From sequence record QB031384.1: 42,708 nt of DNA; one strand, written 5' to 3'. Position 1 is the stretch's first letter; every line of letters starts with the position of its first letter. The position numbers and the translations under genes were made by a program. The notes beneath the pieces were generated by a model. The model did no database searches. It saw only the letters and a program-made list of their open reading frames with translations, and was not told the origin of the DNA. Below are positions 26,019 through 36,080 of the stretch, in pieces. Source of the DNA: a phage.

Positions 26019-26591
26019 TTACATTGCCCAATCAGGACGCTCACCCTTACCGCAGTAAAAGTCAATCAGGTCTAGTAAGCGCGGATAATACTTCAGCGAA
26101 CTCTTACCGTCCATTTCCGCAACCTGGCGCCTACTGAAGCTGCGCCACTCTGCTGCCGTATGCTGCTGACATCCTGCACGCACTATGTCCTTACAGATAC
26201 TAATGAAGTACGTTTCTCCGTATATAATGACAGTCTTGGCGCCGCGCAGGTCAGCGCGGCGCAGGTTAGCGCCGCGCAGGTCAGCGTAGCGCAGGTCAGC
26301 GTCGCGCAGGTCAGTACCGGTCAGGTCAGCGCCGCGCAGGTCAGCGATGCGCAGGTCAGCGTCGCGCAGGTCAGCGCCGCTCAGGTCAGCGCCGCGCAGG
26401 TCAGTACCGGTCAGGTCAGCGCCGCGCAGGTTAGCGTAGCGCAGGTTAGCGCCGCGCAGGTCAGCGTCGCGCAGGTCAGTGCTGCTCAGGTCAGCGTCGC
26501 ACAGGTCAGCGTCGCGCAGGTTAGCGCGGCGCAGGTCAACGCTGTGCAGTCTTCCTAACTTATATATTTCGCAGATTTCTTGATAGTTCAT
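26019..26591 (-). CDS. Pentapeptide-repeat protein 1 (about 21 tandem A(D/N)LxG-type pentapeptides plus 70-aa non-repeat C-terminal domain)
   Basis: 190-aa ORF with an unbroken run of [15 protein letters not shown] pentapeptides after the N-terminal cap [12 protein letters not shown]. Strand chosen because all flanking genes are minus-strand. Confidence 0.8.
26238..26549. repeat. Tandem array of about 21 copies of a 15-bp unit (CGCAGGTCAGCGNCG-like) encoding the pentapeptide repeats
   Basis: Periodicity is visible directly: gcgcaggtcagcg recurs every 15 bp, varying mainly at 2-3 positions per unit. Confidence 0.9.
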
Positions 26592-27378: not shown

Positions 27379-27489
27379 ATTGAATCCTCTTAAGTCTGCA
27401 ACCTCACCGCGAAGTTGCTTAACTAAGAGACTTCCTTAGCGAGTCTTATTTCTCTTAGACTCTCATCTGCATCGCACTGTATTACCTGT

Positions 27490-27638
27490 GCACGGGAGGA
27501 ACCGCTCAAGCTCGTACTATCTACCCAGAGCTTTCAGGAGGGCACCGGGATTAAAGTCCCCGGTGACTAACAAGCCGCTTTGCTATCTGCATCTCGTCTT
27601 GATGAAATGAATTCTACAGCATTCTAAAACTGTGTCAA
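27490..27638 (-). promoter_or_regulatory. Promoter-leader cassette R1: sigma70-like promoter (TTGACA - 16 bp - TAGAAT) plus conserved structured 5' leader
   Basis: -35 at 27633-27638 and -10 at 27611-27616. Downstream leader contains a hairpin (CACCGGG/CCCGGTG), GCCCTCCTGAA, a second hairpin with loop GGGTAGATA, and GAGCGGTTCCTCCCGT. Homologous to copies at 34406-34528 and 35943-36080. Confidence 0.55.
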
Positions 27639-27650
27639 CACTTATTTTAA

Positions 27651-28838
27651 TTAAATTACCTCTTCCTCTTTAAAGGATTTACCAATACCACATTCGGCGG
27701 GAAACTTAACTTCAGACAGTATGCCAAAGTTAGGCCACAACTGTAGCATCCTATCACGGGCTCCTTCCATAACGTTTTTGATGAGCTTACCCGCCTTACG
27801 GGCCGTCTCTTCGTCAGCACAATCTATGTACAAACAGTCATGGACGGTAACCAGCAAACACCATTTACCCCCCATCCAATTGTCAGCTATACCAGCCCTC
27901 ATAGCCATTCCGGTTGCAATAAGCATAAGCAGGGAACCTGATCCTTGAAACGGATAGTTAGCCATCTCTGTGGGCTTAAAGTCCATTACCTGCTTACCTT
28001 CGCGCCACACCGGCTTCTGACGGAAGCGGTAGCGAGTACCGCAAGGCGTAGTGAAGTAGCCCTCGCGATAGATACGCCAGCTGCCGTCATCTGCTTGTTC
28101 ACGGCGTATAGGCTCCAGCAGCGCAGTACGGTTTACTTCAGCTGCAATGACATCCCTGTACTTAATAGACTCAGGGAATAGTGCCTCCTCGTTAGCTAAG
28201 AACTTCTCAGCGTCGGCTAAGCTAGCACCTGAGGCGAACGCCAGTCCTTTAGCGGATGCTCCATATTGTGCTGCGAAGCTGAAGGTTTTGATGGCTGTTC
28301 GCTTCTTCTTCCATCCTTTATGGTCCGGTGCATCCGGGTTATGGCAAAGCTCGTAGACTTCTTCATAAGGCATACCTTCTTGGAATGCTAGACGATAGCA
28401 GTGCATATCCGTACCGGCTTCAAGCAAGCTCAGTAATTTCTTATCACCAGTGATTACACAGCCCATTACAACCTCCATAGCTGAGTAGTCACACTGTGCA
28501 ATCATACCCTGCTCACCATAGCGGCTACGCAGAATCTGCTTAACCTTAGACTCACGCGGCAGCTGCTGCATGTTCGGGTTAGATGTTGACAGGCGTCCGG
28601 TAGTAGTTGAGCAGTGATTCGACCTGTGGTGAATGATGCCAGAACCATCTGCTGATGTAGGGATGACGTACGGCAGCATGCCCGTCACCTTACGCAGACT
28701 GCCATCCTTATTAGTCTCACGTACTTCATAGAAGCCGAGGTCCTTCTGGCGTGTAGTCATTTCTTTGTATGCTTTGAAGAAGTCTGAAGCTAACTTAGCC
28801 ATCTTGTTCCATCCCAATAAAATAATGTGCAAGGTCAT
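27651..28838 (-). CDS. DNA polymerase, family A: polymerase (fingers/palm) part
   Basis: 395-aa ORF with TGRLSTSNPNMQQLP, motif A-like CDYSAMEV, motif B-like RTAIKTFSFAAQYG and motif C VHD. Overlaps the upstream exonuclease-domain ORF by 44 nt in a different frame. Confidence 0.85.
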   Translation of the reverse strand: MTLHIILLGWNKMAKLASDFFKAYKEMTTRQKDLGFYEVRETNKDGSLRKVTGMLPYVIPTSADGSGIIHHRSNHCSTTTGRLSTSNPNMQQLPRESKVKQILRSRYGEQGMIAQCDYSAMEVVMGCVITGDKKLLSLLEAGTDMHCYRLAFQEGMPYEEVYELCHNPDAPDHKGWKKKRTAIKTFSFAAQYGASAKGLAFASGASLADAEKFLANEEALFPESIKYRDVIAAEVNRTALLEPIRREQADDGSWRIYREGYFTTPCGTRYRFRQKPVWREGKQVMDFKPTEMANYPFQGSGSLLMLIATGMAMRAGIADNWMGGKWCLLVTVHDCLYIDCADEETARKAGKLIKNVMEGARDRMLQLWPNFGILSEVKFPAECGIGKSFKEEEVI

Positions 28839-29940
28839 TCATTGCGTCCGTTCCTGTGCTGTACACAGGGCTACCATCCGCTAATGTTTGAGCACCTTTG
28901 TATTCACCGCGGTCTCCGTACTTCTCACGTAGAGACTGAGGTAGGTCCTGAATATTAACCAGCCCGTCGAAGCGGTACAGGCGTTCACCCCACTTCATAG
29001 CTTGCTCGTCAGTGTCTACTTTTATGAACTTAGGCATACCCTTATTACGCCCAGACTTATACACCCCGTCCTGTACTTCCTTCTTAATGTATTTAGGTGG
29101 GTCATAAGGAACCTTGCACTTGTACTTAACCATGCCACCATACACTAAAGCGGACATATGATAACCGCTATTCCAGTTAAACTCGAAGCCCTCTGGCAAT
29201 TCTGGCAAGAATGTCTGAAGTAACTCCCGCAGATTCCGAATAGCGTCCTCCTGCTCCTTCTGGTTTACGCGTGCTGTAGGCATATCAACGTACACGCCAT
29301 TGAACTCACAGTATGCCAGAGCTGCGACTGCCTCCATCCTTTCCCAGACCATAGGCATCTGTCCACGTTCCGCAAATACTGCGCATTGCCCGTAGAAGCA
29401 CAGCGCTGTGTTGACTATGTCACCGTTAGGCCCTGTTAAGTATTCATGTAGTAGCATAGGGTCAATGTCTGCTGTCAGAACCCCTTGCTGCCATAGTAGC
29501 TTAACGCCGTCGACTTTGTGTGACCCGCCATACTTAGGGGCAGTCTCATCTAGTGACGGGTAAAGATTCTGGAAGTCGCTGGCAATGTACTCGCCCTGCA
29601 TAGTATCAAAGACTCGACCTCCTCGTCTAAGGAACGACTCGAACTGCTCACGGGCAAAGGTCAGCGCCCAGCTAATCTCGTACGCTGCGTTGTGCGCTAC
29701 GATTAACCACGTATCATCCTGAATAGGTAGCCACTGCTTAGGGTCAGCTGCTAAGAAATCAGTTCGGGATTCATAGCGTACACTCTGCACCTCGCTGCAC
29801 TGTACAGTCCCATCCGGCATAGTCCTATCAATGCGGAAGCCTGATTCTACGATGTAGTTATCAGGGCAGTACGGAGTTGCGACCCCGCCGTAGTACGGAT
29901 GATTTTGAGTTTCAATATCCCAAATTAGAATGCTACTCAT
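28795..29940 (-). CDS. DNA polymerase, family A: N-terminal 3'-5' exonuclease part (separate frame from the polymerase part)
   Basis: Exo I motif WDIET near the N-terminus. The ORF track starts it at a TTG (29946); the ATG at 29940 overlaps the upstream small ORF's stop as ATGA. Ends 44 nt inside the polymerase-domain ORF. Confidence 0.8.
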   Translation of the reverse strand: MSSILIWDIETQNHPYYGGVATPYCPDNYIVESGFRIDRTMPDGTVQCSEVQSVRYESRTDFLAADPKQWLPIQDDTWLIVAHNAAYEISWALTFAREQFESFLRRGGRVFDTMQGEYIASDFQNLYPSLDETAPKYGGSHKVDGVKLLWQQGVLTADIDPMLLHEYLTGPNGDIVNTALCFYGQCAVFAERGQMPMVWERMEAVAALAYCEFNGVYVDMPTARVNQKEQEDAIRNLRELLQTFLPELPEGFEFNWNSGYHMSALVYGGMVKYKCKVPYDPPKYIKKEVQDGVYKSGRNKGMPKFIKVDTDEQAMKWGERLYRFDGLVNIQDLPQSLREKYGDRGEYKGAQTLADGSPVYSTGTDAMNDLAHYFIGMEQDG

Positions 29941-30089
29941 TTCCAATTACTCCGACGTGATTTATTAATGGCTGCCCGTACAATCATCTCGCTACTGTCC
30001 AGCGTGTAGCGCCTAACCTGCTTACGATTGTTAGCAATTGCTCTGATGACTTCGTAGTCTGCCTCAGTAATATCACTTTGCTTTAGCAT
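29937..30089 (-). CDS. Small basic ORF (50 aa), not in ORF track
   Basis: ATG at 30089-30087 preceded by GGTGAGGTG; stop overlaps the DNA polymerase ATG. Translation MLKQSDITEADYEVIRAIANNRKQVRRYTLDSSEMIVRAAINKSRRSNWK. Confidence 0.35.
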   Translation of the reverse strand: MLKQSDITEADYEVIRAIANNRKQVRRYTLDSSEMIVRAAINKSRRSNWK

Positions 30090-30234
30090 TGTTATTCACC
30101 TCACCTTTAAGGCCAGCTAGATGGGATTTAAGGCACTCGACTAACTCAACAATAGTATCCTCATCCAGTTCGAACATTCCTGAATCCCCCTGCTCCAACT
30201 CTATTAATTTTAAAGCTGCTTCATGTAATGTCAT
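30073..30234 (-). CDS. Small acidic ORF (53 aa), not in ORF track
   Basis: ATG at 30234-30232 preceded by a near-consensus SD, AGGAGGT, at about 7 nt. Translation MTLHEAALKLIELEQGDSGMFELDEDTIVELVECLKSHLAGLKGEVNNNAKAK. Confidence 0.45.
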   Translation of the reverse strand: MTLHEAALKLIELEQGDSGMFELDEDTIVELVECLKSHLAGLKGEVNNNAKAK

Positions 30235-30287
30235 TGCCTTACCTCCTAGTTAGTTGACACTGCGCCCCTTGCGAGACGCAGTAGCTA

Positions 30288-31574
30288 CTACGCTAAGCCT
30301 TCTGAGAACCGACACGTACCTCCGTTAAACTCTACCTGAAATTGAACATACGCTGGACTGCCTGACAGTCCTAGCTTATTTTTTGGTGTCGAGATTCCAC
30401 GTACCGTAGCCATATCCGGCCTATCGTTAACATTCATGCGACCCATCATAATACACAAATCTAAAGCCCCTTGAATTCCTATCTTAGAACCTTTCAGCGC
30501 TGTCAGCGGGGGGTACATACAGTCATACCCTTCGACTGACAGCTGCACAGTTCCTAAGATTATACAGTCGTGTTCGCATCCTAAGATTCGTAACTGCTGC
30601 CACTTCTGCTCTAATGCCTGGTATTCAGATTCAGCGTTCCCGCCTTTGATGTTACTTACCATGTCCACCACCAGCACAGCCGGACGCATCTCTTCCAGAA
30701 GGGTAGAGATTTGCCCCAAGCTCATACTGTGGGCATCCTTAACGCGAATCTTATCCCACGTCCCGACCTTCTTCAGATACTTGTCCGCGAACTTACCTTC
30801 CTTATGCTGCTCAACAATCTGCTGCAACGTAAGCCCAGTAGCTGCTTGATAGATACGCGGAACAGTACGCTTAGCTAGTGATTCGTTCACTAACCAGAGT
30901 ATCGGTCTGTCAGAGTAGATGTCAGGGCTTTGATGCATCTGCTCTGCAAGCGAGACAACGGTAGCAGCAAGCAGACTCGTCTTTCCCGCGTCCACTGGCG
31001 CAGCAATAGCGACGCAATCACCACCACGCAGGCCGCGAATGTTCCGAGATAACTCAGAGAATACAGTAAGCTGTAACCCGCCGCTTTCATCAGTAGCTGC
31101 AAGGATATCATCTACACCTCCGTCTTCCCATTTCAATAATGAATCATTAGCAGCTGCTACGCCTGAGTACTTACGCTCAAGCGCTTTAGCTTCTTGTACG
31201 AAATCTATTTCCCCTCCTGCCTGATACTTACTTACAAGCGCAGCCATCTCACCTGAGTAAGCCAGCTCGTTCAGAGTCTTAACTGTACCAGCTACAAGCT
31301 CGTTAGGTACGTTCTGGATAGTCTTAAGCATATGCTTCAGGATATCCATCTGCTCTTTCTGAAGATGCGTACCGCGCATATCCAAGAGCGTATTCATCAT
31401 CTCAAAGTTAACTTCGTTAGAGTCAGGGTAAGTTGCAAAGTACAGTTGCAGCCAACCAATCATCGCTACTGTATCAGGTGCTAACAGAGACTTAGGTGTC
31501 TGCTCATACAACCTGTCCATTATCTTACGTTCACAGAAAGCGCGTAGTAAATTAAAGTCCATCAAGTGCTCCAA
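30288..31574 (-). CDS. Replicative DNA helicase (DnaB/T7 gp4 helicase-domain-like)
   Basis: 428-aa ORF with Walker A AAPVDAGKTS and Walker B-like VLVVDMV. Lies between primase and DNA polymerase. Confidence 0.8.
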   Translation of the reverse strand: MEHLMDFNLLRAFCERKIMDRLYEQTPKSLLAPDTVAMIGWLQLYFATYPDSNEVNFEMMNTLLDMRGTHLQKEQMDILKHMLKTIQNVPNELVAGTVKTLNELAYSGEMAALVSKYQAGGEIDFVQEAKALERKYSGVAAANDSLLKWEDGGVDDILAATDESGGLQLTVFSELSRNIRGLRGGDCVAIAAPVDAGKTSLLAATVVSLAEQMHQSPDIYSDRPILWLVNESLAKRTVPRIYQAATGLTLQQIVEQHKEGKFADKYLKKVGTWDKIRVKDAHSMSLGQISTLLEEMRPAVLVVDMVSNIKGGNAESEYQALEQKWQQLRILGCEHDCIILGTVQLSVEGYDCMYPPLTALKGSKIGIQGALDLCIMMGRMNVNDRPDMATVRGISTPKNKLGLSGSPAYVQFQVEFNGGTCRFSEGLA

Positions 31575-32501: not shown

Positions 32502-32803
32502 GCATAATACTCAATGCAAGCAGCCTTAAACGCCTGCTTAGCGCCTTCATACCCCAGCTGCTGCAACTGCCTTACTATATCGAAATTGATGCGTCGCAGG
32601 ACCTCTGAGGCCCTTTCAGCATCATACTTATAATAACCTACCAACAACCGCATACCTTCCTTAGTATCGTAGTCCCTGCACCATTTTAAAGGGCAGAGCT
32701 TACGCAGTTCAATCGGTACGTCCTTTAACGTCTTAAGGCCTAAGCTGCTCTGGCTCTCGAGCATACGCCAGTACTGCTCTGTTACTTCTTCTACTGGTAA
32801 CAT
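32474..32803 (-). CDS. Hypothetical protein (109 aa)
   Basis: ORF starting about 10 nt after the stop of pentapeptide-repeat protein 2. No motif recognised. Confidence 0.5.
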   Translation of the reverse strand: MLPVEEVTEQYWRMLESQSSLGLKTLKDVPIELRKLCPLKWCRDYDTKEGMRLLVGYYKYDAERASEVLRRINFDIVRQLQQLGYEGAKQAFKAACIEYYAWQTSYRGI

Positions 32804-32813
32804 GCCTAGCTCC

Positions 32814-33350
32814 TTAGATACTAACCCAATCAGCGACGCGCAGGTCAGCGTCGCGCAGGTCAGTGCCGGTCAGGTCAGCGCCGCGCAGGTTAGCGCCGCG
32901 CAGGTTAGCGCCAATCAGGTTAGCGTCGCGCAGGTTAGCGCCGCTCAGGTCAGTGCCGCGCAGGTTAGCGCCGCGCAGGTTAGCGCCGTGCAGGTCAGCG
33001 CTGCGCAGGTCAGCGCCGCTCAGGTCAGCGCCGCTCAGGTCAGCGATGTTCAGGTCAGCGTAGCGCAGGTCAGCGCCGCGCAGGTCAGCGCCGCTCAGGT
33101 CAGCGCCGCGCAGGTTAGCGCCAATCAGGTTAGCGTCGCGCAGCTTAGCGTCGCTCAGGTCAGCGACGCGCAGGTCAGCGTCGCTCAGGTCAGCGTAGCG
33201 CAGGTCAGCGCCGCTCAGGTCAGCGCCGCGCAGGTCAGCGTCGAGCAGGTTAGCGCGGCGCAGGTCAGCGCCGCACAGGTCAGCGCCGCACAGGTCAGCG
33301 CCTTCCAAGGATTCTAACTTGTATTTATTACAGATATTGTCATAAGTCAT
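32814..33350 (-). CDS. Pentapeptide-repeat protein 2 (about 32 tandem pentapeptides; paralogue of 26019-26591)
   Basis: Unbroken A(D/N)L(R/S/C)G-type run that ends at the stop codon. Preferred start is the internal ATG at 33350 (GAGGT SD 8 nt upstream; cap MTYDNICNKYKL matches [12 protein letters not shown] of protein 1). The ORF track extends it to 33401. Confidence 0.8.
   Translation of the reverse strand: MTYDNICNKYKLESLEGADLCGADLCGADLRRANLLDADLRGADLSGADLRYADLSDADLRVADLSDAKLRDANLIGANLRGADLSGADLRGADLRYADLNIADLSGADLSGADLRSADLHGANLRGANLRGTDLSGANLRDANLIGANLRGANLRGADLTGTDLRDADLRVADWVSI
32827..33302. repeat. Tandem array of about 32 copies of the same 15-bp unit (CGCAGGTCAGCGNCG-like)
   Basis: Same 15-bp periodicity and unit sequence as the array at 26238-26549, on the same strand. 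Confidence 0.9.
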
Positions 33351-33360
33351 ATTAGTAACC

Positions 33361-33597
33361 TCAGTTAATTTTAATATTAAAACGTGCACAATACCCTTCA
33401 AGGGTCATCCCTACTTTAGCTGCTTTAAGACTGTAAGCTAACTTAAGAGCTTCCTTAGCGTCATGCTCACGAGCCAGCTTCTCAATCGTTACTTCATCAT
33501 TACGCATCAGAATCATTTCGGGGTTCCGGTTAATCATTTCTGCATCTCCAGTTTGAAAAGGGCCATTGCAGCGTTCCAGGCGAAACGCGGGTTGCAT
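33361..33597 (-). CDS. Hypothetical protein (78 aa)
   Basis: ORF-track ORF in the early/middle region. No motif recognised. Confidence 0.45.
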   Translation of the reverse strand: MQPAFRLERCNGPFQTGDAEMINRNPEMILMRNDEVTIEKLAREHDAKEALKLAYSLKAAKVGMTLEGYCARFNIKIN

Positions 33598-34312: not shown

Positions 34313-34405
34313 CTTAACTCCTTAGTGGTTTTATTAAAGCCCTCCGCAGAAGGCTTTGTAAAACTACTTTAGTTTCTTTCATCTCAGACCCACTGAATTA
34401 TCCGT

Positions 34406-34528
34406 GGACGGGAGGAACCGCTCGAGCCTGTTCTATCTACCCTAGGCTCTCAGAAGGGCAATCACTTAGCGTTGTTGATTAACGTCCTGCTATGAATCCA
34501 ACTATACTCCTATTTTATTTTGTGTCAA
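34406..34528 (-). promoter_or_regulatory. Promoter-leader cassette R2: sigma70-like promoter (TTGACA - 16 bp - TATAGT) plus conserved structured leader
   Basis: -35 at 34523-34528 and -10 at 34501-34506. Leader has a hairpin (AATCA/TGATT), GCCCTTCTGA, a GAGCC/GGCTC stem around GGGTAGATA, and GAGCGGTTCCTCCCGT. Confidence 0.55.
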
Positions 34529-35882: not shown

Positions 35883-35942
35883 CTTAGCGAAGCTCTTGTC
35901 TCTTCAATCTAGTGAGCTTCTCATCTATTCCCTCTGTATAAC

Positions 35943-36080
35943 CCGAGGACGCTAGGTAACGCTCAGAACCTGTTTATCTACCCCGATTCTTCAGGAGGGC
36001 AGCGGCTTTATGTTATCCGCTAACGTCTTGCTTATGTCTTGCTATGTGATGAAGTATACGCTTCAAAACAGGTAAGTCAA
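35943..36080 (-). promoter_or_regulatory. Promoter-leader cassette R3: sigma70-like promoter (TTGACT - 16 bp - TATACT) plus conserved structured leader
   Basis: -35 at 36075-36080 and -10 at 36053-36058. Leader has a hairpin (AGCGG/CCGCT), GCCCTCCTGAA, an AGAAUC/GGUUCU stem (one G-U pair) around GGGTAGATA, and a diverged GAGCG...CCUC segment. Confidence 0.55.

Follow-up and report, generated by a model that had tools for sequence, protein, structure and literature searches.

Two tandem small open reading frames in the helicase–DNA polymerase interval of a KP34-like phage

Described relatives and layout of the locus

Phage T7 carries genes 4.3, 4.5 and 4.7 upstream and genes 5.5, 5.7 and 5.9 downstream of gene 5, all of them small, non-essential and situated within the replication cluster. 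Several of these inhibit host factors: RecBCD is targeted by gp5.9, H-NS by gp5.5, sigma-S by gp5.7 and Lon by gp4.5. Closer to the locus considered here are Klebsiella phage KP34, with its gp18 (ACY66749.1, "hypothetical protein KP-KP34p18"), Escherichia phage vB_EcoP_P64441 (PQ847473; Autographivirales, Slopekvirinae), hereafter P64441, and vB_EcoP_PAS7 (PAS7), the proposed type of the genus Cepavirus (PMC11522302). Our literature search found no experimental work on KP34 gp17 or gp18 or on the small proteins of Drulisvirus.

The window, by which we mean the whole 42,708-nt stretch of phage DNA analysed (record QB031384.1), has all of its long ORFs on the minus strand. Its helicase–polymerase region shares 98.5% identity with P64441 and ~80% with PAS7, and on this sequence similarity the window phage can be placed among the KP34-like Slopekvirinae coliphages, near P64441. 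Between the helicase stop (30288) and the polymerase ATG (29940) lie ORF53 and ORF50, which overlap by 17 nt, the ORF50 start falling within the end of ORF53. The original prediction had put two tandem ORFs of 53 and 50 aa in a helicase–polymerase gap of 340 bp; coordinates read from the sequence bear out the pair, and the gap itself is real with a length of 347 nt. The features of the locus are as follows.

30288..31562, minus strand: DnaB-like replicative helicase (Pfam AAA_25 and DnaB_C; "DNA helicase" in P64441), the upstream gene
30258..30283, minus strand: stem-loop UACUGCGUCUC-GCAA-GGGGCGCAGUG, then UGU, between the helicase stop and the ORF53 Shine-Dalgarno (SD) sequence, at the 5' edge of the small-gene cassette
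30241..30247, minus strand: SD of ORF53, AGGAGGT, with a 6-nt spacer to the ATG, read from the sequence
30073..30234, minus strand: ORF53 (ATG start, 53 aa, TGA stop), a putative accessory gene limited to a small coliphage clade
30097..30105, minus strand: SD-like GGTGAGGTG of ORF50, inside the ORF53 3' end, with GAGGTG 7 nt before the ATG
29937..30089, minus strand: ORF50 (ATG start, 50 aa), a member of the KP34 gp18 / PHROG 4548 family
29937..29940, minus strand: ATGA stop–start overlap of ORF50 (TGA 29939..29937) and the polymerase N-terminal ORF (ATG 29940..29938)
28795..29940, minus strand: DNA polymerase N-terminal ORF (381 aa), first half of a split family A polymerase, the downstream gene

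Pfam agrees with the helicase and DNA polymerase flanks that had been proposed, with the refinement that the family A polymerase is divided between two ORFs. The N-terminal ORF carries the label "DNA-directed DNA polymerase" in P64441, and the second ORF matches Pfam DNA_pol_A. The two ORFs (27651-28802 and 28795-29940, minus strand; 383 and 381 aa) overlap by 8 nt (ATGGCTAA) and align with residues 394-785 and 1-395, respectively, of the single-chain, 786-aa KP34 polymerase. Since the same split occurs in P64441, PAS7 and three further loci (L005, L056 and L062), it has the appearance of a stable gene fission, not of an error. ORF50 was rejected as a displaced polymerase N-terminus, as the polymerase ORF itself opens with the conserved exonuclease-motif N-terminus (MSSILIWDIET) and its alignment to the KP34 polymerase starts at residue 1 of the latter.

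Neither small gene is new. The description "unannotated" was true of the ORF track from which the original prediction was made and fails for PQ847473, where both are annotated CDSs: the hypothetical proteins XXQ42865.1 and XXQ42866.1 of P64441 are 100% identical to ORF50 and ORF53, with order and overlaps alike, and the exact sequences of both also occur, without names, in metagenome assemblies. ORF50 is the catalogued KP34 gp18 / PHROG 4548 gene, its residues 1-50 matching profile positions 1-53 of the 53 in phrog_4548 (E = 2.1e-14, 54 bits). KP34 gp18 shares 56% identity with it in a MAFFT alignment, having in common M-L-K, D-I, LDSS, IV..A.N, RR and WK, and is of equal length, in the same helicase–polymerase position and with a stop–start overlap with its next gene. 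That next gene encodes an HNH endonuclease in KP34 and the polymerase in the window, and the preceding small gene is gp17 in the former and ORF53, unrelated to gp17, in the latter. ORF50 has the traits of its family, namely the position between helicase and polymerase, a length of ~50-53 aa and a stop overlapping the next start.

By tblastn, ORF50 was located in 230 phage records (211 Klebsiella, 9 Escherichia, 5 Enterobacter and a few others), and the helicase in 232 Klebsiella and 17 Escherichia records, so that, among Klebsiella phages with this helicase, roughly nine in ten records have kept ORF50 (211 vs 232). An ORF50 profile searched against 1.84 billion representative proteins returned two clusters, both of this phage family, and besides these only two repetitive proteins, apparently false positives. 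One intact ORF50 homologue (locus L014, ~3001) begins with ATA instead of ATG, which may reflect a non-canonical start codon, inactivation by mutation or an error in sequencing. ORF53 had already been annotated, as a hypothetical protein, and belongs to a tiny family; its relatives, confined to P64441 and to six metagenomic clusters, all occupy this helicase–polymerase slot. A diverged duplicate of ORF50 was considered as its source and discarded (hhalign probability 0.1%). Overall, the prediction was correct as an observation, and what it describes is not novel, being of a kind common among the small accessory genes of phage replication modules.

Coding status, translation signals and the upstream hairpin

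Conservation of the two reading frames in related phages, the check proposed with the original prediction, was found for both, together with purifying selection. For ORF50, the median pairwise dN/dS was 0.20 across 51 distinct coding sequences from 55 loci, compared to 1.37 and 1.16 when the same alignments were read in the two other frames, and 16 alignment columns were invariant between coliphage and Klebsiella phage members. For ORF53, where few relatives are available for comparison, dN/dS was 0.06 against locus L059 (14 synonymous and 8 non-synonymous differences over 36 codons) and, against locus L058, 0.14 over the first 36 codons and 0.16 over 43 codons; the other frames gave about 0.6 to 4.8 where dS was non-zero. 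This frame-specific selection on both ORFs indicates more than chance reading frames, and on these sequence comparisons ORF50 and ORF53 are very probably real protein genes.

The near-consensus SD attributed to the first ORF is present at 30247..30241, and it is kept in all ORF53-bearing loci as TAGGAGG, or as TAGGAGA in L062. ORF50 has a good SD as well, and the corresponding position in other loci is taken by AGGAGG, by GGGAG or by purine-rich sites of lesser strength. As had been claimed, the second ORF terminates in an ATGA that also contains the polymerase start codon, and this overlap is also conserved in relatives. ORF50 terminates in TGGAAATGA in 41 of 44 distinct contexts, no matter which gene lies downstream, and the ATG embedded in this sequence is the start of that gene, be it the polymerase, an HNH endonuclease or another ORF. 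Stop–start coupling, proposed here from sequence for ORF50 and the polymerase, would therefore be a conserved property of the junction.

Taken together, both ORFs would be small genes of the replication (middle) operon. ORF53 would be translated from its near-consensus SD, behind a conserved stem-loop; ORF50 would start from the SD embedded in the ORF53 tail; and ribosomes terminating on ORF50 would be handed to the polymerase start via the ATGA overlap. A sigma-70-like match (ATGACA, 16 nt, TAAAAT; 10 of 12 positions) lies inside the ORF53 start (30234-30207, minus strand). Such matches are no more numerous in this region than shuffling would predict, and this one is therefore probably due to chance.

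The stem-loop lies within a 76-nt stretch (30300..30225) with an RNA folding energy of -25.1 kcal/mol (z = -2.1). A hairpin followed by TGT occurs in nearly all loci, after the helicase, HNH or methylase gene (for example at 3306 in L003 and, on the reverse complement, at 4795 in L002), in 12 distinct sequences. When these were anchored on the TGT after the stem, the outer three pairs proved compensatory between clades (C-G/T-A/G-C, A-T/G-C/C-G and T-A/A-T/G-C), whilst the loops varied freely; this count was used in place of a MAFFT/RNAalifold alignment, which was out of structural register and uninformative. Even between P64441 and the window, one pair differs by a double change, G-C to A-T. 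The window holds no second copy of the hairpin, and no Rfam family matched within 29700-30500. The hairpin has no U-tract, is present also in genomes that lack ORF50, and may mark a transcript end, act as a processing site or serve as a stabiliser. It resembles the hairpin motif that Eriksson et al. termed a "putative phage promoter" and located at two early sites of KP34-like genomes (PMC4411677). A KP34-type promoter was excluded as its identity, given that the experimentally defined promoters of the KP34 RNA polymerase have different sequences (PMC6834552); a search of the window for those promoters gave no convincing match, the one 3-mismatch match being at chance level.

Cassette exchange and natural absence of the small genes

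The helicase–polymerase interval takes 25 gene arrangements in 54 complete loci. In the simplest, the helicase is followed by a 52-nt spacer, ORF50 and the polymerase; elsewhere, insertions on either side of ORF50 comprise HNH endonuclease genes, gp17-like genes and several other small ORFs. The content of the small-gene cassette does not track polymerase relatedness. For instance, the first 135 polymerase residues are 97% identical between locus L062, which has ORF53 only, and locus L005, which has ORF50 but not ORF53. Cassette content at odds with polymerase relatedness points to exchange by recombination and, from these genome comparisons, marks the interval as a recombination hot spot, with cassettes apparently being swapped along a seam formed by the ORF50 stop–start junction.

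P64441 carries a 426-nt HNH endonuclease gene (L001 4589-5014) between the helicase and the hairpin/ORF53 unit, which the window does not have. The gene directly follows the helicase stop in both P64441 and PAS7 and is absent from the corresponding site in the window (~30284-30290). The boundaries of the insertion are clean, with the helicase stop on one side and TAG-TAGCTAC, which precedes the hairpin, on the other, and a presence/absence pattern of this kind is typical of a free-standing homing endonuclease. In two metagenomic loci, a C5 DNA methylase gene (PF00145; L062 2128-2946 and L063 27-827) occupies the HNH slot; the hairpin comes next, then an ORF53 homologue and lastly the polymerase.

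Both small genes are also missing from close relatives. In L056/57, L058, L062 and L063, an ORF53 homologue of 46-48 aa stands directly before the polymerase and ORF50 is absent, as judged within the fetched loci of 1.4-6 kb rather than over whole contigs. These ORF53-only lineages differ among themselves by a dS of 0.4-1.6, and their helicase and polymerase are 87-92% identical to those of the window. Shigella phage SFN6B (Drulisvirus; L064 2782-2845) has the hairpin and an SD followed by the polymerase, with neither ORF50 nor any other small ORF, and is a natural ORF50-null phage. In L059 (1185-1428), a deletion takes the tail of ORF53, leaving a homologue of 40 aa, together with the first 20 codons of ORF50; an internal ATG there could still yield a 28-aa C-terminal ORF50 fragment coupled to the polymerase. 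ORF53, for its part, is absent from most relatives, including PAS7 and all Drulisvirus genomes. Because each gene is missing from viable close relatives, neither would be an obligatory replisome subunit, and the pattern argues for dispensable accessory genes that are selected in many, not all, lineages.

Possible functions of the two proteins

The two proteins differ in charge. ORF53 is acidic (pI 4.6, net charge -6.3) and was modelled by AF2 as a helix-loop-helix, or two-helix hairpin (helices 3-14 and 25-52; pLDDT 77), whilst ORF50 is basic (pI 10.3, net charge +4.5) and was modelled as a two-helix hairpin (helices 9-25 and 30-47; pLDDT 72); both models are of moderate confidence only and have shallow alignments behind them. 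Searches of Pfam, PHROGs, NCBIfam, PDB sequences and the 1.84-billion-protein profile database found no characterised family for either protein, and ORF53 had no match among PDB sequences at E <= 10. Residues 30-49 of 4 of 19 ORF50 members scored 14-17 bits against PaaX (maximum 16.6), below the 24.8-bit cut-off, and GntR scored 12.3 bits in one member only. The window ORF50 matched none of the PaaX, GntR and ribbon-helix-helix profiles, the last of which matched no member at all. With scores below threshold and no match for the window protein, assignment of ORF50 to a winged-helix (GntR/PaaX) family was not accepted.

The original prediction had also drawn an analogy with the small host-directed proteins of the T7 group. 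It holds for position and size: both T7 and the window phage have their own RNA polymerase, and in each, small dispensable proteins are encoded in the replication gene cluster. It does not extend to sequence, since profiles of ORF50 and ORF53 compared with 27 T7 small proteins (including gp4.3, 4.5, 4.7, 5.5, 5.7 and 5.9) gave a best E of 0.12, by which homology to this set was rejected; within it, gp4.3, gp4.5 and gp4.7 gave E >= 0.49 for both profiles. With no profile resemblance, the analogy is only positional. A physical counterpart is gp5.9 (52 aa, charge about -8 by sequence count), which ORF53 (53 aa, net charge -6) resembles in being small, strongly acidic and, by prediction, helical; there is no sequence homology between them (E = 1.4 in the 27-sequence set).

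The reading we favour, which we hold to be probable though far from secure, is that ORF50 and ORF53 are real accessory small genes in a recombination hot spot; with much lower certainty, their products would be small binding or inhibitor proteins. The idea of host-factor inhibition is plausible by analogy, as it fits the accessory, dispensable and hot-spot character of the genes, and acidic ORF53 especially. An inhibitory role for ORF53 is suggested by a hot spot shared with a methylase and mobile endonucleases, by its restriction to one clade and by its low GC content (40%, compared to 44% for ORF50 and 48% for the window). On this view, the target of ORF53 would be a DNA-binding or defence protein of the host, engaged much as acidic mimic proteins engage theirs, and that of ORF50 would be nucleic acid or an acidic partner. 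As a more specific and tentative assignment, possible yet short of an even chance, both would be small accessory binding proteins, with ORF53 most likely inhibiting a host DNA-binding or defence protein and ORF50 acting as a second host-directed factor or as a non-essential nucleic-acid-binding helper. A bolder version, which we regard as unlikely, would have the interval as an anti-defence or host-takeover island that swaps unrelated cassettes (ORF50, ORF53, gp17-like genes and the C5 methylase), with ORF53 a new, sequence-unrelated acidic mimic blocking a DNA-binding defence enzyme of the host, such as RecBCD or a restriction system, and ORF50 a second inhibitor of another target.

Alternatively, ORF50 could be a replication accessory factor, which either binds nucleic acid as a small basic protein or associates with the helicase or polymerase, and which is co-produced with the polymerase through coupling. 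Its constant place between the helicase and polymerase genes, the coupling to the next gene, its high pI and the weak likeness of residues 30-49 in four members to a PaaX/GntR recognition helix all speak for such a role, to which we nevertheless assign a low probability. Retention in about nine-tenths of the Klebsiella records would likewise suit a role linked to replication, beneficial without being essential.

Less likely again is that ORF50, or ORF53 in its place, is mainly a translated leader that delivers ribosomes downstream, its peptide being of little function. The near invariance of the TGGAAATGA junction whatever gene comes next is consistent with this, as is the placement of ORF53, where ORF50 is missing, directly upstream of the polymerase with an ATGA or a 2-nt gap. 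However, the amino acids of ORF50 are constrained over its full length, as its low dN/dS and invariant columns attest, the SFN6B polymerase has its own SD and no upstream ORF, and the polymerase start in the window has GGAG 9 nt upstream. That both frames are chance ORFs in a non-coding spacer is barely credible: they are very short, have no Pfam match and owe their standing as genes to sequence data, but selection specific to the reading frame, lengths and start positions conserved across more than 50 loci (the ATA start of L014 excepted), the SDs and an independent PHROG family all speak against it.

For the favoured reading of small accessory binding proteins, the natural presence/absence variants amount to natural knock-outs that would ease functional tests. 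The ORF50 family is kept in more than 200 therapeutic-candidate phages of Klebsiella, Enterobacter and E. coli, and if either protein were an inhibitor of a defence system or host factor, it would bear on host range in phage therapy.

Several other repeats were observed in the window. An 85-nt repeat is present in three copies (27460-27544, 34376-34460 and 35917-36001; 62-78% identity to the reference copy), which sit in gaps between long ORFs of the early/replication region, and a 47-51-nt repeat pair lies near them (27376/35826 and 27602/34492); both are possibly promoters or leader elements of the clade. Runs with 15-nt periodicity (32755-33390 and ~26239-26532) fall inside ORFs 32814-33401 and 26019-26591 (minus strand), which correspond to pentapeptide repeat-containing proteins annotated in P64441.
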